DNA of 64,000 nt from Gemmatimonadota bacterium (GCA_009837395.1 VXTP01000043.1:456936-520935); one strand, 5' to 3'; positions 23,403 through 39,840 are shown, numbered from the stretch's first letter. Notes: generated from the letters alone by a model not told the origin. Numbers and translations: made by a program.

Positions 23403-24533
23403 GTGCGAATCCTGGATTCCGGCACGGTCTGCGACGGCCATCCAATCCCCGGTCACCGCAGTAATTGCGCCTTCACCACCATCAACCGACTGCATGACGG
23501 CACGATACTCGTCTCGGGCCGCTGGGGCTCGGACCGCGATTCGGCGGACGGGCACGCCTGTGTCTGGGCGACCGTGGATCGCGGCCGTACCTGGGGCCTT
23601 CGATACGACGGATTCGGGAAGGGATCCTGGGAGGGTACGCCGGGCGAAATGAAGGGCCTGACCAGTACGGAACTCGCTCCGGGCAGACTCACGGCCACGG
23701 CCCTGTGGGTCGACCGATCCAACCCGGATCTTCCTTTCATCCACCCGCAAACGCAGGGCCTGCTGCCCATGCGCATCCTGCACGTCGAGTCGGAGGACGG
23801 CGGCCGCACCTGGAGCCCACCGCAGCCCATGGACACGTCGCCCCACCTCGCCGCTTCACCCTGTTCGCATGCCGTCATCCAATTCCCCGGCGGCATCCTT
23901 GCACAGCCCTACGAACAGTGGAAGGAATACGAGGATCCGACACCCGGCCGGCCCGTGGCGCGGCTGCGCTTCTCCCGGGACGGCGGCCGGACCTGGCCGG
24001 AGTTCGTCACCGTGGCCCGCCATCCGGACAACGCGCTGGCCTACTGGGACCAGCGGCTGGCTATCCACCCCGGTGACGGGCGCCTCGTCGCCACGTTCTG
24101 GACCCATGATTTCAGGATGGGGTCGGACATCGATATCCATATCGCCTATGGAACCCCGGACGGCCGGTCGTGGACCATCCCGCGGGGTACCGGCCTTCCC
24201 GGCCAGCACTGCCAGCCCCTGTCCCTGGGCGGCGACCGGCTGCTGGCCGCCTATCCGCGGCGGCGTGATCCCCCCGGCATCGTACTTTCCATCAGCGAAG
24301 ATTTCGGGAAGCACTGGGAACGCGAGCGGGATCTCCTGGTCTACGACAGCACCACCGGCACCGAATCCGGCGCCAGCGGCGGGCGAACCCAGTCTGAACT
24401 GTGGGGCGACATGGAACGCTGGCGTTTCGGGCATCCCCGGATGGTGCGGCTACCGGGCAACGAGGTCTTCGTGGTTTACTACGCGGGCGATGACGCCGTC
24501 AAGACCGCAAGGTGGGTGCGGGTGCGCGTTTAG
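23403..24533 (+). CDS. BNR/Asp-box repeat protein, sialidase-like (second paralogue)
   Basis: 376 aa. Asp-boxes DRGRTWG, EDGGRTWSP, RDGGRTWPE and EDFGKHWE. No signal peptide. Confidence 0.7.
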   Translation: MRILDSGTVCDGHPIPGHRSNCAFTTINRLHDGTILVSGRWGSDRDSADGHACVWATVDRGRTWGLRYDGFGKGSWEGTPGEMKGLTSTELAPGRLTATALWVDRSNPDLPFIHPQTQGLLPMRILHVESEDGGRTWSPPQPMDTSPHLAASPCSHAVIQFPGGILAQPYEQWKEYEDPTPGRPVARLRFSRDGGRTWPEFVTVARHPDNALAYWDQRLAIHPGDGRLVATFWTHDFRMGSDIDIHIAYGTPDGRSWTIPRGTGLPGQHCQPLSLGGDRLLAAYPRRRDPPGIVLSISEDFGKHWERERDLLVYDSTTGTESGASGGRTQSELWGDMERWRFGHPRMVRLPGNEVFVVYYAGDDAVKTARWVRVRV

Positions 24534-24560: not shown

Positions 24561-25751
24561 TCAGCCCCGCACATCCCGCCACGGCCGGGCCATGATCTGT
24601 TCGAAACCTTCCGGATCGATATCCACACCGAGCCCCGGTCCCAGGGGTACCGCCACGCAACCGTCTTCGTCCAGAACGAAAGGCTCGGCGAAGTAGCCCT
24701 TGCCGATGTACGTCCTGCCCCCCTCCCGCCAGCAGTTCACTTCGTTGTGTTCCTGCACGAGGAAATTCGAAGCGCAGGCGTCGACCTGGATAGACGCGGC
24801 CAGGGCAAGAGGGCTCAACGGGCAGTGCAGGGCGAGTTTCGCGTAGGCGCTTTCGCCCATCACCGCGATCTTGTGGCACTCGGTGATGCCGCCGGCGTGG
24901 CACAGGTCCGGCTGCATCACGGACAGGGCGTTCTTGCGCAGGGCATCATAGAAGATCCATTTCCCCATCCATCGTTCCCCGGCAGCGATGGGGATCTCGC
25001 TGTTGCGCGCGATGTCCGCGAGCACGTCGACCCGTTCCACGGGCATGGGTTCCTCGATGAACAGGGGACGATGGGGCGTGAGGGCGGAAATCATCTGCCT
25101 GGCCATCACGGGGTGGGGATTGTGGATATCCACGGCCACCTCGACATCGGGACCAGCACCCTTCCGCACGGCGGCAAAGGCTTCGGCGATACGATCCACT
25201 TCAGCGGTAGGTTCCAGCCCGGTACCCATGCCCACGTGCAGTTTCATGCACCGAAAGCCCCATTCTTCGATGATGACCCGGGCCGCTTCCTCGTGACCCG
25301 CCGGGAAATCCCAATCCGGTTCCCGGGAAGGATCCCAACCCGCGTCGTAGGGCTGTCCGGGTTCCACGTACCAGGGCAACTGACCGCCGACCGCGCGGTA
25401 CATGCGAATCCGGTCGCGGCAGGCCCCGCCCAGCATGCGGTGTACCGGCAGTCCCGCGGCCTTCCCCGCGAGGTCCCAGAGCGCCATGTCGATCCCGCTG
25501 ATCGCGCTCATCTTCACCGGGCCGCCCACGTAGCCGGAACCGCCTTCGTACATCTTCTGCCAGAGCGATTCGACGCGGCAGGGATCCTCGCCGACGAGCA
25601 ACGGCTCGAGGCGCCGGACCTCGGCGATGACGCTTTCGGGGTGGTTTTCAAGGTAGGGTTCGCCCCAGCCGAACAACTCGGTGTCCGTGTGAATCTTCAG
25701 CCACACCCAGCTCGGTGGTACGCGCAGGATTTCAAAATGGGTGATTCGCAT
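24561..25751 (-). CDS. Enolase-superfamily sugar-acid dehydratase, D-galactonate-dehydratase (DgoD)-like
   Basis: 396 aa. The N-terminus MRITHFEILRVPPSWVWLKIHTDTELFGWGEPYLENHP…DLWQKMYEGG…MSAISGIDMALWDLAGK closely follows the DgoD/ManD pattern. It has the MR/MLE-type barrel. Confidence 0.7.
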   Translation of the reverse strand: MRITHFEILRVPPSWVWLKIHTDTELFGWGEPYLENHPESVIAEVRRLEPLLVGEDPCRVESLWQKMYEGGSGYVGGPVKMSAISGIDMALWDLAGKAAGLPVHRMLGGACRDRIRMYRAVGGQLPWYVEPGQPYDAGWDPSREPDWDFPAGHEEAARVIIEEWGFRCMKLHVGMGTGLEPTAEVDRIAEAFAAVRKGAGPDVEVAVDIHNPHPVMARQMISALTPHRPLFIEEPMPVERVDVLADIARNSEIPIAAGERWMGKWIFYDALRKNALSVMQPDLCHAGGITECHKIAVMGESAYAKLALHCPLSPLALAASIQVDACASNFLVQEHNEVNCWREGGRTYIGKGYFAEPFVLDEDGCVAVPLGPGLGVDIDPEGFEQIMARPWRDVRG

Positions 25752-25762
25752 GCTCGATTCTC

Positions 25763-26740
25763 CTATCGTCCGTAGACCGTCTGGATCGTGGCCCGGATGT
25801 ATCCGTTCGCAAAGGCCTTGCCGGCCGGACCGGCCGAGGACTGAGGGAAACCCGGGGTGTGGTCCATGCCGAAGGGTCCGAAGTACCCGTTATCGCGGTA
25901 GGTTTCCATGGCCCGGTGCATATCCACTTCGCCTTCGTCGATGAAGACCTCGGCGAACCTGGGCAGCTGCCCCCGTACGTTCCGGAAGTGGACCAGGGCG
26001 ATCTTGTTCCGGGAGGCCATCTCGGCAATGATATCGTATACTTTCTGCGGGCCCGCCAGTTCGGTCATGCAGCCCTGGCAGAAGAGCATCCGGTGATGTT
26101 CGCTGGGCACCGCGTCGAAGATGCGTCCGAAATGCTCCAGCGTGGAACAGATCTGGGCGACGCCGCCCAGTGGTTCGGGAATGGGCGGGTCGTCCGGGTG
26201 AAGTGCCAGGTTGACGCCGGCCTTCTCGGCCGCCGGGACCGCGGCGCCCATGAAGGAGACCATGTTGTCCCACATCACGGTCTCGGAGACGGGCGGTTCG
26301 TGGGGCGGTGGACGGTTCCGGTCGAATTCGGCATAGTCGAAAGTGCTGTACACCGCACCGCCGCGACCGATGTCGGAGGTGGTCCGGAAATTGCCCATCG
26401 GCTTGAAATTCCAGGCCAGGGTCGGTATACCCGCCTTTCCCAGGCTTTCGATGAGCTGCAGGAAGGCGCCCAGTTCCTCGTCCCGGTCTTCTGTGGCCAG
26501 GGTGATCCCCTCCAGGACCGGCATGAATACGGTCTGCAGCTTCAATCCGTGAGACTCCGTCTTTTCCCGGGCCCGTTCGAACAGTTCCGTGCTGTCCTTT
26601 CCGGCCCTCACGTGCCGTTCAGCGTCGGATTTCCCTCCCGTCCTGAGGTCCAGCTGGATCATGTCCACGCTGATCGCGCGGTAGAAGCTGAGCGTTTCAT
26701 CATCGAAATCGGTCCAGTTTACGACATCGTGCAGATACAT
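25763..26740 (-). CDS. Mannonate-dehydratase (UxuA)-family TIM-barrel protein
   Basis: 325 aa with a xylose-isomerase-like TIM-barrel pattern and UxuA-like motifs. Only 11 bp from the upstream DgoD-like gene. Confidence 0.55.
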   Translation of the reverse strand: MYLHDVVNWTDFDDETLSFYRAISVDMIQLDLRTGGKSDAERHVRAGKDSTELFERAREKTESHGLKLQTVFMPVLEGITLATEDRDEELGAFLQLIESLGKAGIPTLAWNFKPMGNFRTTSDIGRGGAVYSTFDYAEFDRNRPPPHEPPVSETVMWDNMVSFMGAAVPAAEKAGVNLALHPDDPPIPEPLGGVAQICSTLEHFGRIFDAVPSEHHRMLFCQGCMTELAGPQKVYDIIAEMASRNKIALVHFRNVRGQLPRFAEVFIDEGEVDMHRAMETYRDNGYFGPFGMDHTPGFPQSSAGPAGKAFANGYIRATIQTVYGR

Positions 26741-26872
26741 CGGGCTCCTCCAATGCGGTCATGGCGGACCGGGTACCGGGCCTGATCAGTCAGTCCGGTC
26801 CATTCAGTCTGAATCCGGGGACGGCGGTCTGATGTCAAGATAGGCTGGCCGGTGGTCCCGGCAACTGCGAAG

Positions 26873-26890
26873 TGGACAGATGAATGTCCA
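26873..26890. promoter_or_regulatory. Perfect 6-6-6 palindrome TGGACA-N6-TGTCCA, a candidate operator in the divergent DgoD/UxuA-aldolase intergenic region
   Basis: Read directly: tggaca gatgaa tgtcca. A TATAAT hexamer lies about 30 bp downstream at about 26920-26926. Two ATGAAT-containing imperfect direct repeats (tcaaatgaatatgccag and tcaatgaatggcagg) lie at 27017-27052. Confidence 0.35.
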
Positions 26891-27072
26891 TTTCCGCAGA
26901 TTGGGCTATCGAAAAGGGACATCGCACATTATAATCGTGGTTGCCCGGACCGTGCAAGGACGGTTCGGACGGGACGGGCGGGTCCACAGAACAGCAGGTC
27001 CATAAAACCTCTGTACTCAAATGAATATGCCAGTTTTCAATGAATGGCAGGCCATCACAACAGGAGTAGCAC

Positions 27073-27798
27073 ATGGCGGAGCACAATCTGAAACAACGCA
27101 TCGGCGCGGGAGAGCAGGTCATTGGCGCCAATGTCGGCATGACCCATACCCGGGACCAGCTGAAAAAGATCGCCGAATCCGGACAGTTTGACTTTCTCTG
27201 GGTGGATGGACAGCACAGCGCCTTCAGCGAGGAACGGCTGGTGGAATTCTGCGACCGGGCGGATACACTGGATGCCGACGTCATGTTCCGCATCAAGCAC
27301 ACCCATCATAGCTACCTGGTCGGCAACCTGCTCGACCTCGGTCCCGCGGGGATCGAAGTGCCCCAGGTTGAAACGGAAGCGACGGTCGAGGAAGCGGTCG
27401 ATTTCTTCTACTATCCACAGCAGGGCACGCGAAGCTGGGGAGGCGCGGCGCGGCGCAAAGTAAGCGAAGTCGGGGGCGACCGGCTGCAGTACGCCGCATG
27501 GTGGAACAACTACGGCGTGCTGATGATGCAGCTCGAATCCATCCCGGCGGTGACCGGAGCACGACGACTGGCCAAAGCGGGCGTGGACTGCCTGTCCTTC
27601 GGTCCGAACGACCTCATGTACAGTATCGAAGCCCACCCGCAACACCCCTTCCGGGACGTGGACGACTGCGTCCGGCACGTGGTCGACCAGCTACAGGATT
27701 CGGAAACGATGGTGTGCTTCAGGAACCACCCACGTGAAGATCGGGAGAAATACGTGGATATGGGCGTGACCGTGTTCCTGGAAAGCCCGGTTATGTAA
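27073..27798 (+). CDS. HpcH/HpaI-family 2-keto-3-deoxy-acid aldolase
   Basis: 241 aa. Class-II aldolase (PEP-utilising-like barrel) motifs FLWVDGQHSAF…, GIEVPQVET and CLSFGPNDL. Confidence 0.75.
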   Translation: MAEHNLKQRIGAGEQVIGANVGMTHTRDQLKKIAESGQFDFLWVDGQHSAFSEERLVEFCDRADTLDADVMFRIKHTHHSYLVGNLLDLGPAGIEVPQVETEATVEEAVDFFYYPQQGTRSWGGAARRKVSEVGGDRLQYAAWWNNYGVLMMQLESIPAVTGARRLAKAGVDCLSFGPNDLMYSIEAHPQHPFRDVDDCVRHVVDQLQDSETMVCFRNHPREDREKYVDMGVTVFLESPVM

Positions 27799-28009
27799 AT
27801 GACCGGTTCACCCACGGGTGCCGCCGCTTCCTGTTCTGTCGATCGCACCGCTAATCCCTGCCCGACGAGAACACGCCCAGCTCCACGTTGGCCAGTACAA
27901 ATGCCTCGGCGAGCTTCAGCGATGTCGTCCAGGACAGCGTATCTACAAAAGACAACCTCCTCGATTGAGTATAGCTGCACGAGAGATCCCGATCAATTCA
28001 GCACCCTGA

Positions 28010-28062
28010 AAACAGGCAAGCCCCCGGCAGTTCGTACCACCGGAGGCCTGGTCCTGTTTCCT
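28010..28062. terminator. Candidate bidirectional intrinsic terminator between the convergent aldolase and aminotransferase genes
   Basis: Inverted repeat AACAGG…CCTGTT enclosing a GC-rich CCGG-containing core. T-rich tracts lie on both flanks (…cctgtttcctgatatccttatttt on plus; cctgttttcagg on minus). Confidence 0.3.
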
Positions 28063-28079
28063 GATATCCTTATTTTGAA

Positions 28080-29351
28080 TTAACCCTGGCTCGACCCACC
28101 CAGGATATTCTCGAGTTCATTCACGAAGACCTCGAGTTCATCGGGCTTGCCGATGGTCACCCGCAGGTGGTTGCCGAGGAGATTAACCTCTTGGGTGCGG
28201 TATCCGGAACCACTCCGAACCATGACGCCGCGCCTGAACAGTTCACCGGACATCCGGCGGCTGTCCCGCCCGACGTTCACGATCATGTAGTTCCCGTGAC
28301 TCGGCGTGTATTCCAGGCCCAGACGATCGAACTCGGCGGACAGATAGTCCTTGCCGTCGTTCACGACCGTCAGCGTACGGTCGACGAATTCATCATCGTC
28401 AATGGCCGCGAGCGCCGCGTGCATGCCCAGGGTGCTCAGTCCGCCCCCGAAGAATCCCATGTGCGCCATCAGCATATTCATCATGCGCTGGCCGCCGACG
28501 GCGTAACCGATGCGCATGCCGGCCAGGCCGTAGATCTTGGAGAAGGTACGGGCGACCACCACGTTTTCCCGCTCCAGGGCGAGTTTGACGGCATCCTGGT
28601 AGTTCGGGTCGCGAACGAAGTGGATATAGGCTTCGTCGATGAGCACGATGGCCTGTTCGGGCGCCGCATCCACCAGGGACACGAGATCATCGTAGGGCAC
28701 GATCGTTCCGGTGGGATTGTTGGGATTGGTGACGACGATCAGGGACGTTTTCGGGGTGATGGCCGCTTTCATGGCGCCGAGATCGTGTACGAAATCACCC
28801 GTGGTCGGCACGCGGACGACACTGACGTCCTTCCCCATCATCTGAAAACTCTGAAAGCCCCGGGCGACCGATCCATATCCCGGAACCGCCTCGATGCATT
28901 CTCCGCCGTTGCCGGCGGCGATGACGGCGAGCGCCTGAAGAATGGGACCGGAACCCGGCGTGACCATGACCCGGTTCAGTTCACGAAAACGCATGAACGA
29001 CCGCATGTCTTCAAAACTCAGTTCGAAACCCTCTACGCCCGGGACGTCGTGCATCTTGTTGAGGCGGACGGGCAGGTCCACACCGAAATCGTACCGGTTG
29101 ATCTTGTGCAGGTTCTCGGCGATGGCCGCCACAGCGCGAGGGGACGCGCCGAGGGGGTTCTCATTGGAACCGATATTGACCCGGCCCGGCTCGACGCCGT
29201 ATCCGCGGACGTCGCCGGCCTTCTTTCCGGTCGCCATCGCCTGCGCGATGTCCCAGGCTGAACCGGTGGCCACGGCACCGGCACCCAAAAGGGCACCCTT
29301 CATGAACCGCCGCCGCGTAAAGCCGTTCTTCAGTACACTCGCGAAACCCAT
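28080..29351 (-). CDS. Class I/II PLP aminotransferase (HisC-like) carrying a Tat signal peptide
   Basis: 423 aa. N-terminus TRRRFMKGALLGAGAVATGSA fits the S/T-R-R-x-F-L-K Tat motif. PLP-Lys motif TFSKIYGLAGMRIGYA. Last gene of the GMC dehydrogenase operon. Confidence 0.75.
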   Translation of the reverse strand: MGFASVLKNGFTRRRFMKGALLGAGAVATGSAWDIAQAMATGKKAGDVRGYGVEPGRVNIGSNENPLGASPRAVAAIAENLHKINRYDFGVDLPVRLNKMHDVPGVEGFELSFEDMRSFMRFRELNRVMVTPGSGPILQALAVIAAGNGGECIEAVPGYGSVARGFQSFQMMGKDVSVVRVPTTGDFVHDLGAMKAAITPKTSLIVVTNPNNPTGTIVPYDDLVSLVDAAPEQAIVLIDEAYIHFVRDPNYQDAVKLALERENVVVARTFSKIYGLAGMRIGYAVGGQRMMNMLMAHMGFFGGGLSTLGMHAALAAIDDDEFVDRTLTVVNDGKDYLSAEFDRLGLEYTPSHGNYMIVNVGRDSRRMSGELFRRGVMVRSGSGYRTQEVNLLGNHLRVTIGKPDELEVFVNELENILGGSSQG

Positions 29352-29405
29352 GATCTTGCCTCCACAGTTAAAGTGATTTAAACACGTTCTAAAAACCCGA
29401 TCCCG

Positions 29406-31070
29406 CTACCTGATATTGAGCCTTGCCATCTGGGTGACGATGTAATCCGCACAGCGGAAGGCCAGCGCCTGTATCGTCAGCGTCGGGTTGCTCTTGCCGC
29501 TGGTGACGAAGGACGATCCGTCCACGATGAACAGGTTGTCCACGTCGTGAGCCTGGTTGAACTTGTTGACCACCGACGTCGCCGGATCGTTGCCCATGCG
29601 GCAGGTGCCCATGAGATGGGCGTCGCCGCGGGGTACGAAGTTCGGCGAGGCCACGACCCCGTGGGCGCCGGCTGCATCGAGCAGTTCCCGGGCCCGTTCG
29701 CGGAAGAAGTCCCCGAGTTTATGTTCATTGGGATGCACATTGTAGGTCACGCGCGGGACGGGCAGGCCCCACTTGTCGTTGACGTCGGGGTCGAGGTCGA
29801 TCGTATTGGACTCCTGGGACATGGACTGCATGCTGGTGAGGGCGACCATGTACCGGGTGTAGTTGTCCATGATCCACTTCTTGCGCCGGGCGCCCCACCT
29901 GCGCAGACGCGGCATGTTCAGGTTGGCGAAAGAGATGGTCTCGCCGTCCCCCCGCGGTTCGAGCACGCCCCCGCCGAAGAAACCGTACTTGTCCGGGTCC
30001 GGGTCGTAGAAATCCTGTATGATCCGGGTATCCATGACGCCCTTGTACTCGTTCAGGTCCTTCTCGTAGAAACCCCGCGCGGACTGGTAGTAGTTGAACA
30101 TCAGGTGCTTGCCCACCTTGCCGCTGCTGTTGGCCAGGCCGTCCGGGAAGAGATTGGATTTCGACATGAGCAGCAGGCGGGGAGTATGGACGCCGTTGCA
30201 GCATACGATGACCGCGCGGGCTTCCAGCCGGTGCTCGCGCAGGTCCTTGTCCAGGTAGATGACCCCTTCCGCCCTGCCGTCCTCGTCGACCACGATCTCC
30301 CGCACGCAGGCGTCGGCACGGATCTGGCAATTGCCCGTACGCAGCGCCTGCGGAATCATGGTGACCAGCATGCTGGACCGCGCCTGGATGGTACAGACGT
30401 AGCTTTCGCAGAATCCGCAGTTCATGACCGGCGATCTTCCGCCGTATTCCCGGGAGTTGATGGCCAGGGGCGCCGGGTAGGAATGCCAGCCGAGTTTCCC
30501 GGCGGCCAGGTCGGACAGGGCGCCCGAACTGGTCCGCGGCACCGGGGGCATGGGATAGGGCCGGCGGCGCGGCGGATCGAAGGGATTGGCGCCGGCCAGG
30601 CCCGAAATGCCGATCTCGTACTCGGCTTTCTCGTAGTAATGTTCCAGGTCCCAGTAGTCGATGGGCCAGTCCTGCACGTCGGCGCCGTCCAGGTCGCCGA
30701 AGAGGCTTCGCTCTTTGAAATCGTTCTCGTGAAGCCGCCATGAAATGCCGGTGTAGTGGAGCGTGCTGCCGCCGACGGTGCTCTGCATGTGGATCCCGTG
30801 GTCTTCGGTAGCCTGCACGTCCGCCGACTGCCGGTACGTATTGGGCTGGTCGTGGCGGTAGATGTTGGGATGGTCCGGATTGTTGCTGGCGGGATGCATG
30901 GCCTGAAGCTCGTCCTGGTCGAAATGGCGGGTCTTAAGAAAAGATCCCATTTCCATGGCGACCACGCGCAGCCCCTTCGTGCTCAATTCCTTCGCCAGTA
31001 CCGCGCCCGCGGCACCGGTGCCGATGATGATTACGTCCGGCCGTCGTATGTTGGGATTGGGTAGGGACAT
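29406..31070 (-). CDS. GMC-family FAD oxidoreductase (large subunit, no own signal peptide)
   Basis: 554 aa. N-terminal Rossmann GxGxxG (VIIIGTGAAGAVLA) and a C-terminal GMC-oxidoreductase region with active-site His. Confidence 0.85.
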   Translation of the reverse strand: MSLPNPNIRRPDVIIIGTGAAGAVLAKELSTKGLRVVAMEMGSFLKTRHFDQDELQAMHPASNNPDHPNIYRHDQPNTYRQSADVQATEDHGIHMQSTVGGSTLHYTGISWRLHENDFKERSLFGDLDGADVQDWPIDYWDLEHYYEKAEYEIGISGLAGANPFDPPRRRPYPMPPVPRTSSGALSDLAAGKLGWHSYPAPLAINSREYGGRSPVMNCGFCESYVCTIQARSSMLVTMIPQALRTGNCQIRADACVREIVVDEDGRAEGVIYLDKDLREHRLEARAVIVCCNGVHTPRLLLMSKSNLFPDGLANSSGKVGKHLMFNYYQSARGFYEKDLNEYKGVMDTRIIQDFYDPDPDKYGFFGGGVLEPRGDGETISFANLNMPRLRRWGARRKKWIMDNYTRYMVALTSMQSMSQESNTIDLDPDVNDKWGLPVPRVTYNVHPNEHKLGDFFRERARELLDAAGAHGVVASPNFVPRGDAHLMGTCRMGNDPATSVVNKFNQAHDVDNLFIVDGSSFVTSGKSNPTLTIQALAFRCADYIVTQMARLNIR

Positions 31071-31083
31071 GGAGGCTTCGGAG

Positions 31084-31764
31084 TTATTCCTCGCCGATAA
31101 TCCGGCTCTTCATGGGACCGTCGTAGGGTTTCCATTCGGGATATTCGGTTTCCGGAATGGTCATGTCGAATTCGCTGAAGGGGGGATCGTAGCCGAACGG
31201 CGCCCGGCCCGGAAACCGGATCAGCTTCCAGCCGGTCTCGCGGTAGTTGCCCCCGTAGGACGGATCGCTGAACATGCCTTCCATGGTATGGGTAACCACC
31301 ATGCGCAGGAAGTCCCGGGCGCCCATGGGGGCGTCCTCCGGCCAGGTCCCGGGAGACCTCGGTCGGTCCATGCCCATCAGCACCCGACGTTGTGTCCTGG
31401 CGTCCAGTTCCAGGAAAGGCGCTTCGTGCGCATTCAGGCAATACTGATCGAAGGCGGCCAGGCCCGATTCATACGTCTCCCTGTATTCGGCCCGGTGTGC
31501 GCCCAGCGCCCGGTCGATATAGACGACTACCCGGGCTTCCGCCGCGCCCGGACCGTTGTCGTCGGACGGCATGATCATCCGGGTCAGCGCGTCGACGGTA
31601 CGTCCCTGGTGCGCGTCCAGGTGCTGCCACGCGTGTTCGAAGGGCGGCGCTTCCTGGGCGTCCAGCACGCCGGTACGGGACAGCACGCCGAGGGTGATCA
31701 CGCCCCCGGTCGCCTGCGCGGTGCTGGCGATAAACGAACGGCGGGAAAAGCGCTTCTTCGTCAT
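31084..31764 (-). CDS. Gluconate 2-dehydrogenase subunit-3 family protein (Tat signal; hitch-hiker small subunit)
   Basis: Start at MTKKRFSRRSFIAS (Tat motif). C-terminal FSDPSYGGNYRETGWKLIRFPG is characteristic of this family. 14 bp upstream of the GMC gene. Confidence 0.75.
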   Translation of the reverse strand: MTKKRFSRRSFIASTAQATGGVITLGVLSRTGVLDAQEAPPFEHAWQHLDAHQGRTVDALTRMIMPSDDNGPGAAEARVVVYIDRALGAHRAEYRETYESGLAAFDQYCLNAHEAPFLELDARTQRRVLMGMDRPRSPGTWPEDAPMGARDFLRMVVTHTMEGMFSDPSYGGNYRETGWKLIRFPGRAPFGYDPPFSEFDMTIPETEYPEWKPYDGPMKSRIIGEE

Positions 31765-31961
31765 GGTTTCAAGGCTCCGGAATCCGGCGTTTTTCAGGTC
31801 CGTACGCACATCAGGAATGTATACACGATTCAGCCCGGTTTATTCAAACTATCCGCTCCAAAAATACGGATGGACACCGGGTTGACAACAGAATTCGACC
31901 ACGCACAAACTGGCGGGCAAAGAAGTTGACGGCGATACCCGCGAATCTATATTCATTTAGC

Positions 31962-32918
31962 ATGGATATTCTGAAACCGCCGGCATTGAAACCGGGCGAT
32001 ACCATCGGGATCGTCGCACCGGCCAGCCGCTCCGCACTGCCGAGCGCCCTGAAGAACGGCCGCCGGTCGATCGAAGCCCTCGGATTCCGCACGGAGACCG
32101 CCCCGCACCTTTCGGACCGGCACGGATTCCTCGCCGGCAGGGACGCCGACCGCCTGGCCGATCTCCAGGCCATGTTCGCCGACCCGGAAATCAAGGGCAT
32201 CGCATGCCTTCGCGGGGGATACGGGTCCGTCCGCATGCTGCCCGACCTGGATTACGACGTCTTCCGCGCCCATCCGAAGGTCTTTGTCGGCTACAGCGAC
32301 ATCACGGCCCTCCACGGGGCGATTCAACGGCATGCCGGACTGGTCACCTTCTGGGGACCCATGGTCTCTTCCGACATGAGCCCCGTTTTTCAACCGTATA
32401 ATCGGGATGCCTTCGTGAAGGCGGTTGCGGGAACCGATCCCATCGGTGAGATTCCGCACCCCGACGACATGCCGCCGGTGCAGACCATACAGGGCGGCCG
32501 GGCCAGCGGACCGCTGATCGGGGGCACGCTTTCGTTGCTTGCGGCCGCGGTGGGAACGCCCTACGAATTCGATTACGACGGCGCCGTCCTGTTCTTCGAG
32601 GACGTGGGCGAAGAACCCCACCGGATCGACCGGATGCTCACGCAACTGCTGCAGTCGGGCCGGCTTGCCCGCGTCTCCGGCATCGTGATCGGCGAATGCG
32701 CCGGGTGCGGCAGTGCGCCGCACAACCCCGCGTTTCCTTACGGCAGTTTCAGTATAGAGGAAGTGTTCATCGACCGGCTGAAACCACTGGGGATTCCGGT
32801 TGTCTACGGTCTGGGAATCGGCCACGGCACGTACAAGGCGACGCTGCCCCTGGGCGTGCGGGCCACCCTCGACGGTGATGCCTGCACCCTCACGATCGAC
32901 GAGCCGGGCGTCATCTAG
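31962..32918 (+). CDS. LD-carboxypeptidase (S66 peptidase, LdcA-like)
   Basis: MDILKPPALKPGDTIGIVAPAS N-terminus. Ser-nucleophile context GYSDITAL. Conserved GIVIGEC and C-terminal GHG region. Confidence 0.75.
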   Translation: MDILKPPALKPGDTIGIVAPASRSALPSALKNGRRSIEALGFRTETAPHLSDRHGFLAGRDADRLADLQAMFADPEIKGIACLRGGYGSVRMLPDLDYDVFRAHPKVFVGYSDITALHGAIQRHAGLVTFWGPMVSSDMSPVFQPYNRDAFVKAVAGTDPIGEIPHPDDMPPVQTIQGGRASGPLIGGTLSLLAAAVGTPYEFDYDGAVLFFEDVGEEPHRIDRMLTQLLQSGRLARVSGIVIGECAGCGSAPHNPAFPYGSFSIEEVFIDRLKPLGIPVVYGLGIGHGTYKATLPLGVRATLDGDACTLTIDEPGVI

Positions 32919-33003: not shown

Positions 33004-33945
33004 ATGGGCATTCACATACTGCTGGACGTACCCCTGCCGGACTCGGTAATGGAACTCTTCGATGCCGGAGACCGTTTCCATATGCTCGACGACCTGGCCG
33101 ACGGTGACGAACGGTGGCATCTCATCGACGCCTATCTCACCTATGGCCATCCCCCCACGGACGGGGAAGTGATGGACCGCATGCCGAACCTGAAGGTCAT
33201 CAGCAATTTCGGGGTAGGCGTCGACCATATCGACACGGAAGCGGCCCGCGAGCGCGGGATTCCCGTGGGAAATACGCCCCACATGCTCGACGGCGCAACT
33301 GCGGATATGACCTTTACCCTCCTGATGGCGGCGGCAAGGCGCGTCGTCGTGGGCGACCGGTTCGCCCGGAGCCCCGGGTTCACGCACTATGACCCCAGCA
33401 TCCTTCACGGATTCGAAGTCCATGGGAGCACCATCGGCATCATCGGCATGGGCAGCATCGGGAAGCAGGTCGCCCGCCGGGCGAACGGGTTCGACATGGA
33501 GATCGTCTATCACAACCGGAAGCCGGACCCGGATGACCACCTTTACCGGGCCCGGTATGTCTCGCTGGAGTTGCTGCTCGAGGTCTCGGATTTCGTGACG
33601 CTGAACTGTCCACTCACGGAGGAGACGCGGGAACTGATCGACGAAGCCGCGCTGCGGCGCATGAAAAAGACCGCTATCCTGATCAATCTGGCCCGGGGCG
33701 CCGTCGTGGATCACGACGCCCTCCACATTGCCCTGAGCAACGGCTGGATCGCCGCGGCGGCGTTGGACGTCACCGAACCGGAGCCCCTGCCGCGGGACCA
33801 TCCCCTGCTCAAACTGGAAAACCTGGTGATCGCGCCGCATCTGGGCAGCGCGACCACGCGCACACGCGACGCGATGGCTCGGAGGACGGTCGAGAACCTC
33901 AAGGCGGGACTCGCCGGGCGGCCCCTCGCGAGCTTCGTCGTCTGA
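33004..33945 (+). CDS. D-isomer-specific 2-hydroxyacid dehydrogenase (glyoxylate/hydroxypyruvate reductase-like)
   Basis: 313 aa. NAD-binding GIIGMGSIG. Catalytic His context (PHLGSAT). 2-Hacid_dh family pattern. Confidence 0.8.
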   Translation: MGIHILLDVPLPDSVMELFDAGDRFHMLDDLADGDERWHLIDAYLTYGHPPTDGEVMDRMPNLKVISNFGVGVDHIDTEAARERGIPVGNTPHMLDGATADMTFTLLMAAARRVVVGDRFARSPGFTHYDPSILHGFEVHGSTIGIIGMGSIGKQVARRANGFDMEIVYHNRKPDPDDHLYRARYVSLELLLEVSDFVTLNCPLTEETRELIDEAALRRMKKTAILINLARGAVVDHDALHIALSNGWIAAAALDVTEPEPLPRDHPLLKLENLVIAPHLGSATTRTRDAMARRTVENLKAGLAGRPLASFVV

Positions 33946-33952
33946 GGCCCCA

Positions 33953-35539
33953 TTGTATTCCTTCGCGCCGCTCGAGCGACGGGTCGCCATAATCGATCTG
34001 GGTTCCAACACGGCCCGGCTTATGATCGCCCAGTTCACGCGGGACCGGGTCTTCAAGATCACCGACGAAGTCAGCAGGCGGGTCCGCCTGGGTGAAGGCA
34101 TCGCCGGGGACGGGCGGCTTCGCTCCGCGGCGCGGTCCCGTGCGCTGGACGCCGTCCGCATGTTCAAGTCGTTCTGCGACGCCCAGGGCATAGACCATAT
34201 ACTGCCTGTAGCCACCGCGGCGGTGCGGGACGCCGCGAACGGCGCCCGCTTCCTCGAGGAGATCGCCCGCGGCACCGGGTTGAACTTCCGACTGATCGGC
34301 GGCGAAGAGGAGGCGTTCTACAGCACCGTGGGCGTGATCAACAGCCTGGGTCTCTTCGACGGGATCATCCTGGACGTCGGCGGCGGCAGCGCGGAAATCG
34401 GTCTGATCCGGGACGGCGCGTTCGCGAAGGGGGCGTCCACGCCCTTCGGCACGGTCAGGACCACCGAGACCTACTTCCCTGGTACGGAGGTTACCCCTGG
34501 ACAGACGAAGCGGCTCGACGGGGACATCGACCGGGCGCTGGATGACATCGGCTGGCTCAAGACCGACGGGAAGGTACCGGTCGCCGGCGTAGGAGGCGTC
34601 GTCCGCGCCCTGGTCCGCATCGACCGGATGGAACGCAAGTACCCCCTCGGGCTCGTGCACGGCTACGAACTGAAGCGGCGCCGGCTGGAAAAGCTGATCG
34701 AGCGCATCGCGTCCATGCCCGTTTCCGAGCGGTCGCGGCGGATCCCCGGGTTGCAGAAGGAAAGAGAGGACATCATCCTGGGCGGCGCCATGATCGTGTT
34801 CGGTGTGATGCGGAAGACCGGCGCGCGGATACTGACCGTGAGCGGCCAGGGCCTGCGGGAAGGGCTGTTCTTCGAAGAGGCGTTCAAGCCCGCGTCGAAA
34901 CCGGACAGTATCGGCCGGCTTCGACGGTTCACGGTCCTGAACCTGGCGCGGCTATACGGTTACGAGGGCGCCCACACCGGCCACGTCGCCCGTTTGTCGC
35001 TCTCCATGTACGACCAACTCCAGGAAATGCATGGTTACGGCAAGCGCGAACGGGAGTACCTGTGGGCCGCGGCCCTGTTGCACGACATCGGCACGGTGAT
35101 CGACTACTACGATCATCACAAGCATTCGGCCTATATCATCCTGAACGCCGGCCTGCCCGGATTCGACCACCGGGAAATCGTGATCATCGCCTGGCTATGC
35201 CTCAATCACCGGCGCGGCAAGCCGAACTTCTCCCGGTACCAGAGCCTGTTGAAGAAGGAAGAACGGACCATGGTGTACCGGCTGTCCTCACTGCTCAGAC
35301 TGTCCGAATACCTGGACCGCAGCCGGGCGCAGATCGTCGAGGACGTCAAGCTGGAGACCGGTAGCAGGAAGGTGCGCATGAAGGTCGTTCCACGGGACGG
35401 CCGGGACGTCACCGTCGAATTGTCTGAAGCAAGAAACCGCGTGCAACTATTTGAAGAATGTTTCGGCAGGCGGCTCGCTATCGAGCTGGACCGTACGGGC
35501 GGGAAGGGAGATCCGAGCGGACCGAGCCGGGCGAACTGA
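33953..35539 (+). CDS. Ppx/GppA-family phosphatase fused to a C-terminal HD domain
   Basis: 528 aa. N-terminal actin-like ASKHA motifs (VAIIDLGSNTARL, LDVGGGS). C-terminal HD motif (LLHDIG). 7-bp gap from the upstream gene. Confidence 0.8.
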   Translation: MYSFAPLERRVAIIDLGSNTARLMIAQFTRDRVFKITDEVSRRVRLGEGIAGDGRLRSAARSRALDAVRMFKSFCDAQGIDHILPVATAAVRDAANGARFLEEIARGTGLNFRLIGGEEEAFYSTVGVINSLGLFDGIILDVGGGSAEIGLIRDGAFAKGASTPFGTVRTTETYFPGTEVTPGQTKRLDGDIDRALDDIGWLKTDGKVPVAGVGGVVRALVRIDRMERKYPLGLVHGYELKRRRLEKLIERIASMPVSERSRRIPGLQKEREDIILGGAMIVFGVMRKTGARILTVSGQGLREGLFFEEAFKPASKPDSIGRLRRFTVLNLARLYGYEGAHTGHVARLSLSMYDQLQEMHGYGKREREYLWAAALLHDIGTVIDYYDHHKHSAYIILNAGLPGFDHREIVIIAWLCLNHRRGKPNFSRYQSLLKKEERTMVYRLSSLLRLSEYLDRSRAQIVEDVKLETGSRKVRMKVVPRDGRDVTVELSEARNRVQLFEECFGRRLAIELDRTGGKGDPSGPSRAN

Positions 35540-35578
35540 ACCGGGCGGACCGGCCAAGTTGACCAGGAGATCCACAAG

Positions 35579-36307
35579 ATGAAACTGAGCGGCGGGCAGA
35601 AACGGTTTTTCAGCGACTTCGGTTACCTCGTCCTACCGGGCCTCCTGCGAGAGGAGATTCCCTGGATCATCGAGGAATTCGAACGGGTGTTCCGTGAGGC
35701 CGGGATCGTGCACGACGGTACCGCCCGGTCGAGCCTGGGGCGCTTCATCGAACGCAGTGAACGGCTGTGCACATTACTCGACCACTCCAATGTCGACGGA
35801 TTGCTGTCGGGCCTCCTGGGGGAGGGCTACAACTATCTGGGCAGCGGCGGCGAGCTGTACGTCGGTGACGGCATGTGGCATCCGGACTGTCACGGGGACC
35901 CGGTTGTCCAGGTAAAATGGGCGATGTATCTCGATCCCCTGACCCCTGAGACCGGCGCCCTCAGATTCGTGCCGGGTTCCCACCGGCAGGGATGGCAGGG
36001 CAATCTCGATACCCATGCGCTCTGGGGCATGGGCATGGAAGAAGTACCCTGCGTCGCGCCCCATAACCAGCCCGGCGATGTCGTCGTGTTTAACCAGATG
36101 ACCCTGCACAATGCCCTTGGCGGCGGAAACCGCCGTCGCATGCTGAACATGACGGCCTGTTCGTCCTGTCGTTCGGAGGCCGAACTCGCCTTTCTTCGGC
36201 GCAGGCTCCCGGCCGACCGGGGCGAACTGCGGTGGGACCTGATGCGCAGGACGGCGACGCCGGAGCGGATGCGCCACCTGGAACAGCCATGGCAGATACT
36301 GGCATAA
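35579..36307 (+). CDS. PhyH-family Fe(II)/2-oxoglutarate dioxygenase (paralogue 3)
   Basis: 242 aa. Motifs MWHPDCHGD and distal HN in MTLHNALGG. The 3' end overlaps the IlvD/EDD gene by about 19 nt. Confidence 0.6.
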   Translation: MKLSGGQKRFFSDFGYLVLPGLLREEIPWIIEEFERVFREAGIVHDGTARSSLGRFIERSERLCTLLDHSNVDGLLSGLLGEGYNYLGSGGELYVGDGMWHPDCHGDPVVQVKWAMYLDPLTPETGALRFVPGSHRQGWQGNLDTHALWGMGMEEVPCVAPHNQPGDVVVFNQMTLHNALGGGNRRRMLNMTACSSCRSEAELAFLRRRLPADRGELRWDLMRRTATPERMRHLEQPWQILA

Positions 36308-37977
36308 AGGGAATAGACCGTAACCTGACCCGGTACGGCGATACGGAATTCAGCCGCTATCTGCGGCGGGCGTTCCTGTCTTCCGCGGGCTATGACGGCG
36401 AAGACCTCGACCGCCCGATCATCGGCGTCGCGGACACGTCATCGGATTACAACACGTGTCACCGGGATATGCCGGCACTCGTGGAAGGCGTCCGGCGCGG
36501 GATCACCCAGGCCGGCGGTCTCGCCCTGGCCTTCCCCACCATCTCGCTGGCCGAAACACTGCTTTCGCCCACTTCCATGCTCTTTCGCAACCTGATGGCC
36601 ATGGGCACGGAGGAAATGATCCGGTCGCAGCCGATGGACGGCGTCGTGCTGCTGGGTGGCTGCGACAAGACCGTGCCGGCCCAGTTGATGGCCGCCGCTT
36701 CGGCCGGCCTGCCGGCGATCTCGCTGGTGACCGGCGCCATGCGCACGGGGAGCTGGCAGGGCGAACGTCTCGGCGCCTGCACGGACTGCCGACGGTACTG
36801 GCTTCGGCATCGGGCGGGTGAAATCGACCAGGAAGAAATCGAAGAAATCGAACAGTCCCTGTGCCCCACGGGCGGAACGTGCATGGTCATGGGAACGGCC
36901 TCGACCATGGCCTGCCTCACGGCGACGCTGGGGCTGATGCTGCCCGGCGGCGCCACGCCGCTCTCCGGATCGGGCGACCGGCTTCGGCAGGCGGTGATGA
37001 CGGGCAGGCGTATCGTCGAACTGGCCCGAAGCGGCGCGGTTCCGCACAAGTTCCTTACCCGGGCGTCGTTCCACAACGCGTCGGTCGTACTCGCGGCGCT
37101 GGGCGGGTCCACCAACGCGGTGATCCACCTCATCGCCATTGCCCGCCGCGCCGGCGTCCCCCTTACGCTGGAAGACCTCCACGAGGCGGCGCGGGAAACG
37201 CCCGTGCTGGTGAACTGCAAACCCGTGGGTACGGGATACATGGAGGACTTCCACAAGGCGGGTGGCCTCCCCGTACTGTGGAAGGCCCTGGAATCCAGGC
37301 TGGACCTCGATGCCACGAACGTGAACGGCGCGTCCCTGGGGGATATCCTGCAGGACACGGCCTCGCCGGACGACTGGCAGGATACCATAGGCACTCTTGA
37401 AGCACCCATCGGACCACCCGGCGCCCTGGTCGTCCTGCGTGGCAGTCTCGCGCCCGACGGGGCCTTGATCAAACGGGCCGCTGCCGCGCTGGACCGCCAG
37501 CGCCACCGGGGCCCGGCCGCCGTATTCGAATCCCCCGACGACGTGGCGGCGCGGATCGACGACCCGAAACTGGGGCTGACCCCCGATCACGTGCTCGTCC
37601 TGCGAAACGCCGGTCCCGTGGCCATGGGCATGCCCGAAGCCGGTTCGCTGCCCATTCCGGCTTACCTGGCGAAAGAGGGGGTCATGGACATGGTGCGCGT
37701 CTCCGATGCGCGGATGAGCGGTACGGCCTACGGTACGGTCGTGCTGCACTGTTGCCCCGAGGCCGCGGTTGGCGGCCCTTTGGCGCTCGTCCAGGACGGC
37801 GATCCGATCGAACTCGACGTGGAGGGCCGGCGGCTCGACCTGTGCGTGCCCGCGGAGGAACTGGCCCGCCGGAAGGCCGGACACGTCCCTCCCCCGCCGC
37901 CCGACCGGGGTTGGCGCCGGCTGTACGCCGAACACGTCCTGCCCGCCCACCTGGGGGCCGACCTGGATTTTCTATGA
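36289..37977 (+). CDS. IlvD/EDD-family dehydratase (sugar-acid dehydratase-like)
   Basis: About 562 aa. Cluster-binding Cys motifs CTDCRR and PTGGTCMVMGTASTMA. Conserved C-terminal SGT…ALITDGRFSG-like region (MSGTAYGTVVLHCCPEAAVGGPLA). Start at MADTGIKGIDRN. Confidence 0.8.
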   Translation: MADTGIKGIDRNLTRYGDTEFSRYLRRAFLSSAGYDGEDLDRPIIGVADTSSDYNTCHRDMPALVEGVRRGITQAGGLALAFPTISLAETLLSPTSMLFRNLMAMGTEEMIRSQPMDGVVLLGGCDKTVPAQLMAAASAGLPAISLVTGAMRTGSWQGERLGACTDCRRYWLRHRAGEIDQEEIEEIEQSLCPTGGTCMVMGTASTMACLTATLGLMLPGGATPLSGSGDRLRQAVMTGRRIVELARSGAVPHKFLTRASFHNASVVLAALGGSTNAVIHLIAIARRAGVPLTLEDLHEAARETPVLVNCKPVGTGYMEDFHKAGGLPVLWKALESRLDLDATNVNGASLGDILQDTASPDDWQDTIGTLEAPIGPPGALVVLRGSLAPDGALIKRAAAALDRQRHRGPAAVFESPDDVAARIDDPKLGLTPDHVLVLRNAGPVAMGMPEAGSLPIPAYLAKEGVMDMVRVSDARMSGTAYGTVVLHCCPEAAVGGPLALVQDGDPIELDVEGRRLDLCVPAEELARRKAGHVPPPPPDRGWRRLYAEHVLPAHLGADLDFL

Positions 37978-38043
37978 GTCAGATTCGTTGGCAACCAGTT
38001 TGCGATGCGCCTTGCGCCGTTCGATCGAGAAAGGAATGCTGTC

Positions 38044-38790
38044 ATGGCAGATAACTGGATTGCCCTGAAGCTGCGCCGCCAGGAGCTGGCGCGTGATAAC
38101 GGCTTTGCAGCGTGGAAGACGATCACGACCGAAACCCGCTGGGAGCCGGAGCGCACCGCGCTGGTGCTGTGCGACGTCTGGGATGCCCACTGGTGCCGCG
38201 GCGCGGTCGAGCGGCTGAACGCGCTGACGCCCCGAATGAACGAGGTCGCGGCCGCCTGCCGGTCCCGGGGCGTCCTGATCGTGCACGCCCCGTCCGACAC
38301 CCTGGATTTCTACCGGGATGCGCCCGCACGGAAAAGAGCCGAGTCCGTACCGTCCGTGGATACGCCGCCGGACCTGGGCCTCCCGGACCCGCCGCTCCCC
38401 GTGGATGCATCCGACGAAGGCGCGGATACGGGCGAAACGGAGACCTTCCGTGCCTGGTCCCGTCAGCACCCGGACATCGACATCGACCAGGAGAGGGACC
38501 TGATGTCCGACAGCGGCGCGCGGATCTACGCCTGTTTCAGGCACTACGGGATCCGCAACATGCTGATGATGGGCGTGCACACCAACATGTGCATCCTGCA
38601 CCGGACTTTCGGCATAAAGCAGATGGTCCGCTGGGGCGTTCCCGTGGCGCTGGTCCGCGATCTCACCGACGCCATGTACAATCCCGCCATGCCGCCCTAC
38701 GTCAGCCATGATGAGGGCACCCGCCTGGTGGTCTCTTTCATCGAGAAGCACTGGTGTCCCACCGTGCACAGTTCGGACATACTCTCGTAA
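38044..38790 (+). CDS. Isochorismatase-family cysteine hydrolase
   Basis: Start at MADNWIALK. Motifs ALVLCDVWDAHW and catalytic-Cys context GVHTNMCIL fit the isochorismatase fold. Confidence 0.55.
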   Translation: MADNWIALKLRRQELARDNGFAAWKTITTETRWEPERTALVLCDVWDAHWCRGAVERLNALTPRMNEVAAACRSRGVLIVHAPSDTLDFYRDAPARKRAESVPSVDTPPDLGLPDPPLPVDASDEGADTGETETFRAWSRQHPDIDIDQERDLMSDSGARIYACFRHYGIRNMLMMGVHTNMCILHRTFGIKQMVRWGVPVALVRDLTDAMYNPAMPPYVSHDEGTRLVVSFIEKHWCPTVHSSDILS

Positions 38791-38880
38791 TGACGGGAAG
38801 GGCAAGACCGTGACCAGATGGAAGGACCGTCACCTCGCCGATACGCGTCGTATCTTGCGGCCGGATTTCTGGGACATCCG

Positions 38881-39840
38881 ATGAATCGTGCGCTGGACGT
38901 GTTGGCGGTCGGGGACGGCAACCTCGACGTGTGGATGCGTGTGCCGCGCCATCCGGACCGGCACCGTGGAGGTGTTCGGGGATCCGGCGTGGTCGGCGAG
39001 GCCTGTCGGGTCGGGCCGGGCGGGGCGGCCGCGAACGTTGCCATGGGCATGGCTCGGTTGGGCGCCAGTGCGGCCTTTGTAGGCGCGATCGGCGACGACG
39101 CGCCGGGTACGCGTTTCGCGGAGGGCATGCGGGCCGGCGGCGTAGACACGTCCCGTCTTCACGTCATGGAGGGACAGGCGACTTCGTTGGCCTGCATGTT
39201 CGAGACACCGGACGGCGAATACACGTTCTACGTGTGTCCGGGTTCCCGGACCATACCTTCCCACTGCCTGGCCGGTGATTTCGTCCGTTCCGCGCGCCTC
39301 CTATACGTCACCGGCCATGTGCTTACCGAAGACGAATCGACCTGCGCAGCCATCCTCGACGCGATGGCCACGGCCCGAGACTCCGGCGTTACGGTAGCCC
39401 TCGATCCGGGAAAGTTCTGGCTCAATCCCGCCCTGGAATCCCGCGTGCACGAGGCCGTGAAGCATACGGACATCATCTTGCCCAACCAGGAGGAAGCGGA
39501 ACAGCTCACGGGCCGGCAAGCGCCTCGTGACGCCGCCGCCGACCTGCTGGAGGCAGGCGTCGGCATCGTATCGGTGACGCTGGGTGGCCGGGGTTGCCTG
39601 GCGGCCTCCGAAGACCGCATGGTCGAGCTGCCGGCCTTCCGCGTCCGGACCGGGTCCACGGTCGGTGCGGGCGACGCTTTCGCCAGCGGACTGCTTTACA
39701 GTTTTCTTTTGAAGGAGAACCTGGAGGAAATGGCGGCTTTCGCCAATGCCGCGGCGGCCATCAAGATCGGTACGCCCGGTGCGTCGGAGGGCATGCCCGG
39801 GGTGGATGAGGTAAGGGCGTTCCTCAGGGAAAACGCATAG
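38881..39840 (+). CDS. PfkB-family carbohydrate kinase (KdgK/ribokinase-like)
   Basis: Start at MNRALDVLAVGDG. Di-Gly region LGGRGC. C-terminal anion-hole motif GAGDAFASG. Confidence 0.75.
   Translation: MNRALDVLAVGDGNLDVWMRVPRHPDRHRGGVRGSGVVGEACRVGPGGAAANVAMGMARLGASAAFVGAIGDDAPGTRFAEGMRAGGVDTSRLHVMEGQATSLACMFETPDGEYTFYVCPGSRTIPSHCLAGDFVRSARLLYVTGHVLTEDESTCAAILDAMATARDSGVTVALDPGKFWLNPALESRVHEAVKHTDIILPNQEEAEQLTGRQAPRDAAADLLEAGVGIVSVTLGGRGCLAASEDRMVELPAFRVRTGSTVGAGDAFASGLLYSFLLKENLEEMAAFANAAAAIKIGTPGASEGMPGVDEVRAFLRENA

Follow-up and report, generated by a model that had tools for sequence, protein, structure and literature searches.

FAD-dependent dehydrogenases of the hitch-hiker type are well known (PMC6719666). 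In the group that includes the FAD-glucose dehydrogenase of Burkholderia cepacia (BcGDH), fructose dehydrogenase (FDH) and the gluconate 2-, sorbitol and glucoside 3-dehydrogenases, a GMC-family gene without a signal peptide directly follows the gene for a small subunit that carries a twin-arginine translocation (Tat) signal; the classical complexes of this group (the γ-α-β BcGDH and the Gluconobacter FDH) also contain a multihaem cytochrome c subunit. A different Tat cargo is PtaA of the fluorescent pseudomonads, a HisC-like pyridoxal 5′-phosphate (PLP) transaminase with an N-terminal Tat signal: PtaA is reported to be exported folded with PLP and to act in the periplasm, and a further PLP enzyme, PvdN, is likewise reported to take the Tat route (PMC6206403). 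We describe here three genes in which these two kinds of protein are brought together. They lie at 28080–31764 in a 64,000-nucleotide stretch of DNA from a Gemmatimonadota bacterium (GCA_009837395.1, VXTP01000043.1:456936-520935), which was analysed as a whole and which we call the window; all positions are counted from its first letter. The predicted arrangement, a periplasmic two-enzyme module, is well supported. We further propose, with a probability of about 0.5, that this operon exports a hitch-hiked FAD dehydrogenase and a PLP-loaded aminotransferase, and that the carbonyl formed by the dehydrogenase would be the amino acceptor of the aminotransferase.

The PtaA and PvdN precedent means that Tat export of a PLP enzyme is not new in itself. 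An earlier note on this DNA had presented the exported PLP aminotransferase as unusual; the signal stands, the novelty of export alone does not. What is new is the combination of a hitch-hiker FAD dehydrogenase with a Tat-exported aminotransferase, the two parts each being of a known kind: our search of the literature on pairings of a GMC enzyme with a periplasmic aminotransferase, on kanamycin-type periplasmic dehydrogenase pathways that include an aminotransferase and on Tat-signal HisC proteins returned only the PtaA/PvdN precedent.

The three open reading frames (ORFs) are co-oriented on the minus strand, as are all of the features of this transcription unit described below. They are encoded in the order small subunit, GMC dehydrogenase, aminotransferase, with gaps of 13 bp between the first two and 54 bp between the last two. 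The small subunit (31084–31764; 226 residues) belongs to the gluconate 2-dehydrogenase subunit-3 family (PF13618, E = 6.4e-29), and its ATG at 31764 agrees with the 226-residue gene calls of 96%-identical homologues. A sigma-70-like promoter candidate is found 5′ of this gene at 31861–31888 (TTGTCA, a 16-nt spacer, TATTTT; nine of 12 consensus matches), a position that fits a three-gene transcription unit; this is weak evidence, in that the scan returned three sites as compared with 1.9 in shuffled sequences. At the other end, 30 nt past the aminotransferase stop codon, lies an intrinsic-terminator-like hairpin (28017–28050; a 15-bp stem with nine G-C pairs, then CCTGTTTT). It is the sole minus-strand site of this kind in 27000–32200, so none falls between the three genes; promoter and terminator calls alike are consensus matches only. 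No riboswitch or leader was reported by an Rfam scan of 27700–32200 (E ≤ 1). This anatomy suggests that the three genes form one operon.

The catalytic subunit of the dehydrogenase (29406–31070; 554 residues; PF00732 and PF05199) has its best matches in the Protein Data Bank (PDB) in the α subunit of BcGDH (6A2U_B, E = 2.7e-60), the structure of which was solved together with the γ subunit, and in the large subunit of FDH (7W2J_A, E ~1e-56), although it shares only ~30% identity with these solved catalytic subunits. In BcGDH the FAD is covalently linked to a His (PMC6719666), with which His105 of the GMC protein aligns (codon at 30756–30758); this residue is kept in 107 of 121 family members. 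His485, to which the catalytic role is assigned (PMC6719666), is invariant in the family. So too are Cys218, Cys221 and Cys226, present in 121/121 sequences, within a loop (CGFCESYVC, 30393–30419) that aligns with the Cys212/218/222 loop at the 3Fe-4S position of BcGDH. Two of the cysteines match C218 and C222 of BcGDH and the first is displaced, the spacing being C-x5-C-x3-C in BcGDH and C-x2-C-x4-C here; the protein from the window probably also binds a 3Fe-4S cluster. The small subunit has no sequence match in the PDB. For glucoside 3- and gluconate 2-dehydrogenase, neither a reference sequence nor a curated model gave a match above cutoff. The PDB comparators for this group are limited to glucose (C1) and fructose (C5) dehydrogenases.

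The third gene is where this locus departs from the classical complexes. It encodes an aminotransferase, and a scan for CxxCH motifs yielded no credible c-type cytochrome gene either in the 64-kb window or in four other loci with the same three genes (L081, L083, L092 and L176; we label sampled loci by L numbers): the scan returned two single-motif ORFs only, both of which overlap real genes. These loci therefore do not encode a complete classical dehydrogenase complex.

The small subunit carries a predicted Tat signal at residues ~1–36 (MTKKRFSRRSFIAS...VLDA; 31657–31764, the cleavage site being approximate), with the motif S-R-R-S-F-I. Twin arginines occur within the N-terminal 45 residues in 51 of 60 homologues and in all six of the syntenic small subunits examined, and residues 1–38 are modelled with a predicted local distance difference test (pLDDT) score below 50. 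Pfam TAT_signal did not report this N-terminus, so the assignment rests on the motif and its conservation. None of 120 GMC homologues has such an N-terminal motif. A motif in the small subunit together with none in the catalytic subunit is the pattern of hitch-hiker export. The compartment to which export would lead is indicated by KdsB, which is encoded in the window and scores above curated cutoffs: its presence indicates that the organism makes Kdo and lipopolysaccharide, and so has an outer membrane and a periplasm. The earlier note had placed the three genes at these positions on the minus strand and had read the first two as a Tat hitch-hiker pair of classic dehydrogenase architecture; the placement and the pair are both borne out, with BcGDH α and the FDH large subunit as nearest solved relatives, but a cytochrome c subunit gene is missing.

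The aminotransferase (28080–29351; 423 residues; PF00155, E = 1.6e-44) has its own predicted Tat signal at residues 1–38 (MGFASVLKNGFTRRRFMKGALLGAGAVATGSAWDIAQA; 29238–29351). It fits the Tat consensus: T-R-R-R-F-M-K is followed by GALLGAGAVATGSA and then by A-Q-A, after which cleavage would occur. A twin-arginine motif is present in the N-terminal 45 residues of 114 of the 120 best homologues, down to ~35% identity, usually as S-R-R-x-F-L/M with a hydrophobic stretch and an A-x-A-like site behind it. In the AlphaFold2 model (mean pLDDT 81), residues 1–55 are of low confidence, their sole structure being a lone helix at 13–41, and the confident aminotransferase fold begins near residue 57; the N-terminus thus lies outside the folded domain. 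The NCBIfam profile PRK09105 aligns with residues 9 to 416, making the signal region part of a recognised family model, and a GGAGG Shine-Dalgarno sequence (29359–29363) 7 nt 5′ of the ATG supports the start codon that includes the twin arginines.

These observations bear on the explanation that the enzyme is a cytoplasmic HisC paralogue, translated from a downstream start, in which the twin-arginine segment has no function. The Pfam TAT_signal model (PF10518) gives this N-terminus 19.1 bits (E = 0.0012), below its gathering score of 22.7, and the best NCBIfam match of the protein is hisC; both points would favour such an explanation. It is opposed by the Shine-Dalgarno sequence before the upstream ATG, by the conservation of motif, hydrophobic stretch and A-x-A-like site among the homologues, by the PRK09105 alignment, and by a hisC score that falls under its cutoff at a locus that has no his-operon context. 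We consider it extremely unlikely, and in the form of a HisC paralogue with a mis-called start we reject it on the Shine-Dalgarno position and the 114/120 conservation. The N-terminus is, on these sequence comparisons, a real Tat-type signal, as the earlier note had claimed, and a conserved one, and it is from this signal and that of the small subunit that we infer export of the enzymes to the periplasm.

As to its identity, the aminotransferase scores 219.6 bits against hisC (TIGR01141, an equivalog model; cutoff 276.55), 211.7 bits against PRK09105 (NF006580; cutoff 444) and 157.2 bits against PtaA (NF051461, an equivalog model; E = 4.5e-46, cutoff 500). The PRK09105 family, the profile of which likewise spans an N-terminal signal region and a catalytic domain, is uncharacterised, and the distance from its cutoff marks a distinct subfamily; the PtaA score sets the enzyme apart from the PtaA orthologues. 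Other differences from PtaA are these: that protein is from Pseudomonas and ours from metagenome-assembled genomes (MAGs) of the FCB group, there is no pyoverdine context here, and the present aminotransferase is constantly tied to a dehydrogenase in one operon. No his genes were found in the neighbourhood. We classify the enzyme as a member of subfamily Iβ (HisC/ArAT-like) that is an orthologue of neither HisC nor PtaA. More generally, HisC-like aminotransferases with a predicted Tat signal make up a large family, broad in its taxonomic range, that is uncharacterised. Scans of genome and metagenome collections with aminotransferase alignments, which served as a negative control and for the survey of neighbours, gave listed matches that were mostly cytoplasmic HisC or relatives of ≤42% identity.

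Alignment with E. coli HisC indicates that every PLP-binding and catalytic residue is conserved: N212, D239, Y242, S271, K272, R280 and R397 align with N157, D184, Y187, S213, K214, R222 and R335, and all seven are invariant among the 106 Tat-signal homologues analysed. Another key residue is R379 (codon at 28215–28217), the equivalent of HisC R322, which with R397 (HisC R335) completes a pair of arginines. In the M. tuberculosis enzymes, it is the corresponding two arginines that hold the phosphate group of histidinol phosphate, or carboxylates (PMC4703992). The fold, the PLP and catalytic residues and both of these substrate-anchoring arginines are shared with HisC and with M. tuberculosis ArAT (Rv3772), from which the present enzyme differs by its ~38-residue signal peptide and its lack of his-operon context. 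R379 is retained in 25 of the 26 members of the clade that is linked to GMC genes; the residue is Thr, Ser or Gly in at least 71 of the other 80 Tat-signal relatives. As a clade-specific signature within the active site, it could guide substrate prediction. The pocket position that is occupied by Val86 in mArAT and Asn103 in mHspAT is a Gly in this enzyme. Foldseek comparisons are in line with the classification: among the best 50 neighbours listed, HisC, ArAT and CobD-type proteins are joined only by other class I enzymes, and 3FFH, 3LY1 and 4R2N head the list (TM-scores of ~0.82–0.85, normalised to the target).

The character of this active site is pertinent to the analogy drawn in the earlier note. 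Put specifically, a dehydrogenase resembling glucoside 3-dehydrogenase would produce a neutral keto-sugar or keto-glycoside on the periplasmic side, for the aminotransferase to convert to an amino sugar. The analogy is with NtdC and NtdA of the kanosamine pathway, which share with this locus only the logic of oxidising a hydroxyl to a ketone and then transaminating it. That pathway is cytoplasmic, its dehydrogenase depends on NAD and its aminotransferase is of the DegT family; the three genes here encode members of neither protein family. To our knowledge, the known keto-sugar and inosose aminotransferases belong to the DegT/DnrJ/EryC1 family. The aminotransferase has no match to the corresponding model (PF01041), only PF00155 and a weak PF00266, and no DegT-type enzyme is among the best 50 Foldseek neighbours listed. 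It has also kept both anion-anchoring arginines, R379 being kept specifically in this clade. There is, nevertheless, something to be said for a sugar substrate. The GMC protein belongs to a family that includes sugar-oxidising FAD dehydrogenase complexes, the triad is conserved (see below), and BNR/sialidase-like and sugar-acid genes are nearby; moreover, the ketone that HisC aminates, imidazole acetol phosphate, is itself no 2-oxo acid. A further point against the analogy is that ~30% identity to a C1-oxidising and a C5-oxidising enzyme does not reveal the regiochemistry of the GMC enzyme. We regard a neutral keto-sugar intermediate as distinctly unlikely: membership of subfamily Iβ and the retained pair of arginines point to an intermediate that is most likely anionic. 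The predicted two-enzyme periplasmic module of the earlier note finds good support in sequence and synteny; the keto-sugar analogy, its weakest part, is not supported.

The three genes are found together well beyond the window. The triad is present in seven of eight sampled loci of one aminotransferase clade (51–95% identity), including L081 and L082 (aminotransferase identity 80%), L083 (66%), the P0019 contig (57%), L176 (56%; small subunit labelled Zixibacteria) and L092 (51%; GMC protein labelled Latescibacteria). A 96%-identical homologue of the small subunit is labelled Gemmatimonadota, so that three phylum-level MAG labels are represented. The three proteins diverge together across loci: identities of 91/80/71% for the GMC protein are accompanied by 80/66/51% for the aminotransferase and 81/60/43% for the small subunit. 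There are at least four different flanks: an LD-carboxypeptidase with a UxuA-like protein; a response regulator; HTH_34, DUF4153 and Amidohydro_3; and Nramp with Amidohydro_2. The divergent LD-carboxypeptidase gene, for which a functional link was considered, lies on the other strand and has no counterpart in L092 or L176. Further triads are suggested, circumstantially, by proteins whose contigs are equal in length, such as P0271, P0127 and P0024, for each of which the contig measures 3,764 bp. In a neighbour-joining tree (no bootstrap), all triad aminotransferases fall in one clade. The conserved synteny that the earlier note had proposed as a check therefore holds within this clade; outside it the link is gone.

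We next set out what weighs against the coupling of the two reactions. The triad linkage is limited to one aminotransferase clade: when the GMC protein and the small subunit were searched by tblastn over 175 loci, the pair was found beside an aminotransferase gene only within that clade, and it was not found at four distant Tat-signal aminotransferase loci. L084, although nested in the clade, is the sole sampled member without the GMC pair; its nested position fits a secondary loss or relocation of that pair. GMC orthologues of 68% identity (L093 and L094) have, in the third slot, the gene for a tetrahaem cytochrome c with a Sec signal. The taxon labels are MAG annotations, and the tree is without support values. 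The flanking sugar-acid genes of the window are not conserved in L092 or L176. The TAT_signal score of the aminotransferase is under threshold, as noted above, and neither the 64-kb window nor any triad locus encodes an electron acceptor for the dehydrogenase. For the coupling, which is plausible, the sole evidence is that the genes are adjacent. Finally, R379 and R397 could merely bind a glutamate/2-oxoglutarate co-substrate; if they serve that half-reaction only, they say little about the other substrate.

Several of these points are also what would be expected of co-transcribed periplasmic enzymes that have no intermediate in common, and that might either reach one product from different precursors or have unrelated substrates; the aminotransferase gene may just fill the slot of a lost cytochrome c gene. 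In L084 the aminotransferase gene keeps its neighbourhood though no GMC pair accompanies it, that very slot is where the sister GMC clade has its tetrahaem cytochrome c, the two families are found apart in their distant members, and all of the sampled triads could stem from a single ancestral arrangement. Against this explanation, gene order and tight spacing have been kept down to 51% aminotransferase identity across those varied flanks and the three phylum labels, and other Tat-signal aminotransferases independently adjoin exported carbonyl-forming redox enzymes. On balance we think it unlikely.

Two of these loci merit further description. In L093:6305-9458 (and also in L094), the third-slot cytochrome has four CxxCH motifs, and two more cytochrome genes lie upstream; comparison with the window suggests a gene replacement in the third slot. 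In L095, where the GMC orthologue is of 52% identity, the third position holds no aminotransferase gene and no cytochrome gene. L084:5313-9251 and L092:2521-9224 both have, upstream, a gene for a ~200-residue protein and an HTH_34 regulator. After the regulator comes DUF4153 and then the triad in L092, and CreD followed by the aminotransferase alone in L084: a possible footprint of the loss of the GMC pair.

For the coupled reading, we hypothesize the following course of events. The small subunit, bearing the sole Tat signal of the dehydrogenase, would carry the folded FAD subunit (probably with its 3Fe-4S cluster) over the membrane, and the aminotransferase would be exported separately by its own Tat signal, folded around PLP, in the manner of PtaA. 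In the periplasm the dehydrogenase would oxidise a C-OH group to a carbonyl, and this product would be the amino-acceptor substrate of the aminotransferase. The shared intermediate would most likely be anionic. It could be a 2-oxo acid, for instance a 2-keto-aldonate derived from a sugar acid, a compound that would be in keeping with the sugar-acid genes of the window. The substrate class and the electron acceptor are matters that we can only infer. Two physiological interpretations of this one chemistry may be envisaged: the module may make an amino compound, or else the oxo-acid acceptor supplied by the dehydrogenase may turn pyridoxamine 5′-phosphate (PMP) back to PLP, enabling the aminotransferase to deaminate another periplasmic amine.

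Periplasmic PLP chemistry is almost unexplored: the authors of the PtaA study describe the periplasmic activity as surprising, and the regeneration of PLP there as unexplained (PMC6206403). With one aminotransferase clade constantly encoded alongside a flavin dehydrogenase of respiratory type, there is a concrete pair of enzymes with which periplasmic oxidation-transamination might be found. If the two reactions are coupled, nitrogen would be transferred outside the cytoplasm by a step of a new kind, in bacteria of the FCB group that are poorly known; the two enzymes would also be a self-contained pair for turning an alcohol into an amine, which may be of interest in biocatalysis. Otherwise, the locus is still a clean case of an unrelated exported enzyme taking the cytochrome c slot of a dehydrogenase operon.

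Other Tat-signal aminotransferases have neighbours of a comparable kind. In L116:3780-7595 and L124:4129-8039, a gene for a Tat-signal flavin amine oxidoreductase (PF01593; E = 2.5e-54 and 9.2e-59, respectively) is directly upstream of that for a distant Tat-signal aminotransferase (~31–32% identity), downstream of which is a gene for a Hint-module protein with a signal-like N-terminus. This arrangement looks like a second, independent and conserved periplasmic flavoenzyme-transaminase cassette. In L089, L090 and L098, which are Woeseiaceae-type contigs, a Tat-signal aminotransferase gene lies between those for a Sec-signal M24 peptidase and an NHL-repeat protein, and overlaps the stop codon of the peptidase gene (L089:4418-10393, and likewise L090 and L098). 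In L089 and L090, a pyrroloquinoline quinone (PQQ) dehydrogenase fused to cytochrome c is encoded two genes upstream of the aminotransferase, and an amidohydrolase gene is also upstream. Taken together, L116/L124 and L089/L090 indicate that the placement of a putative exported carbonyl-forming redox enzyme beside an exported Iβ aminotransferase recurs independently. It is tempting to see a general periplasmic design, in which a Tat-exported flavoenzyme, be it the GMC dehydrogenase of the triad or the flavin amine oxidoreductase of L116 and L124, makes a carbonyl compound or oxo acid that a Tat-exported Iβ aminotransferase then uses, with the window as the founding example. We put this forward as a tentative idea, one that is rather doubtful at this stage. 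Were it true, transamination could proceed outside the cytoplasm, independently of cytoplasmic oxo-acid pools; it would answer how periplasmic PMP is recycled to PLP, and amino compounds could be made or scavenged there. In a separate arrangement, L097:4706-7179 contains a tandem pair of Tat-signal HisC-like aminotransferase genes.

The triad in the window is flanked by a dense set of genes for cytoplasmic sugar-acid catabolism (24561–27798 and 33004–39840). This set includes a galactonate-dehydratase-like enolase, a UxuA-like TIM barrel protein, an HpcH aldolase, a GhrB-like 2-hydroxyacid dehydrogenase, an IlvD/arabinonate-dehydratase-like enzyme and a PfkB kinase. Relative to L081, the HpcH aldolase gene is an insertion, in convergent orientation, between the aminotransferase gene and the UxuA-like gene. 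Adjoining the sugar-acid genes, on the plus strand at 23403–24533, is a gene for a BNR/sialidase-like protein (PF13088), of which L081 has two at the equivalent place. Elsewhere in the window, the plus-strand gene at 44024–45142 encodes a DctP-type TRAP solute-binding protein with both a twin-arginine motif (KRREFLK) and a lipobox (LMAGC), which would make it a Tat-routed lipoprotein. Genes for PhyH or 2-oxoglutarate-Fe(II)-oxygenase-like proteins are located at 13925–14716, 35579–36307 and 45904–46878, two of them with NCBIfam matches and the third with none; PhyH genes recur in the flanks of L083, L084, L087 and L093.

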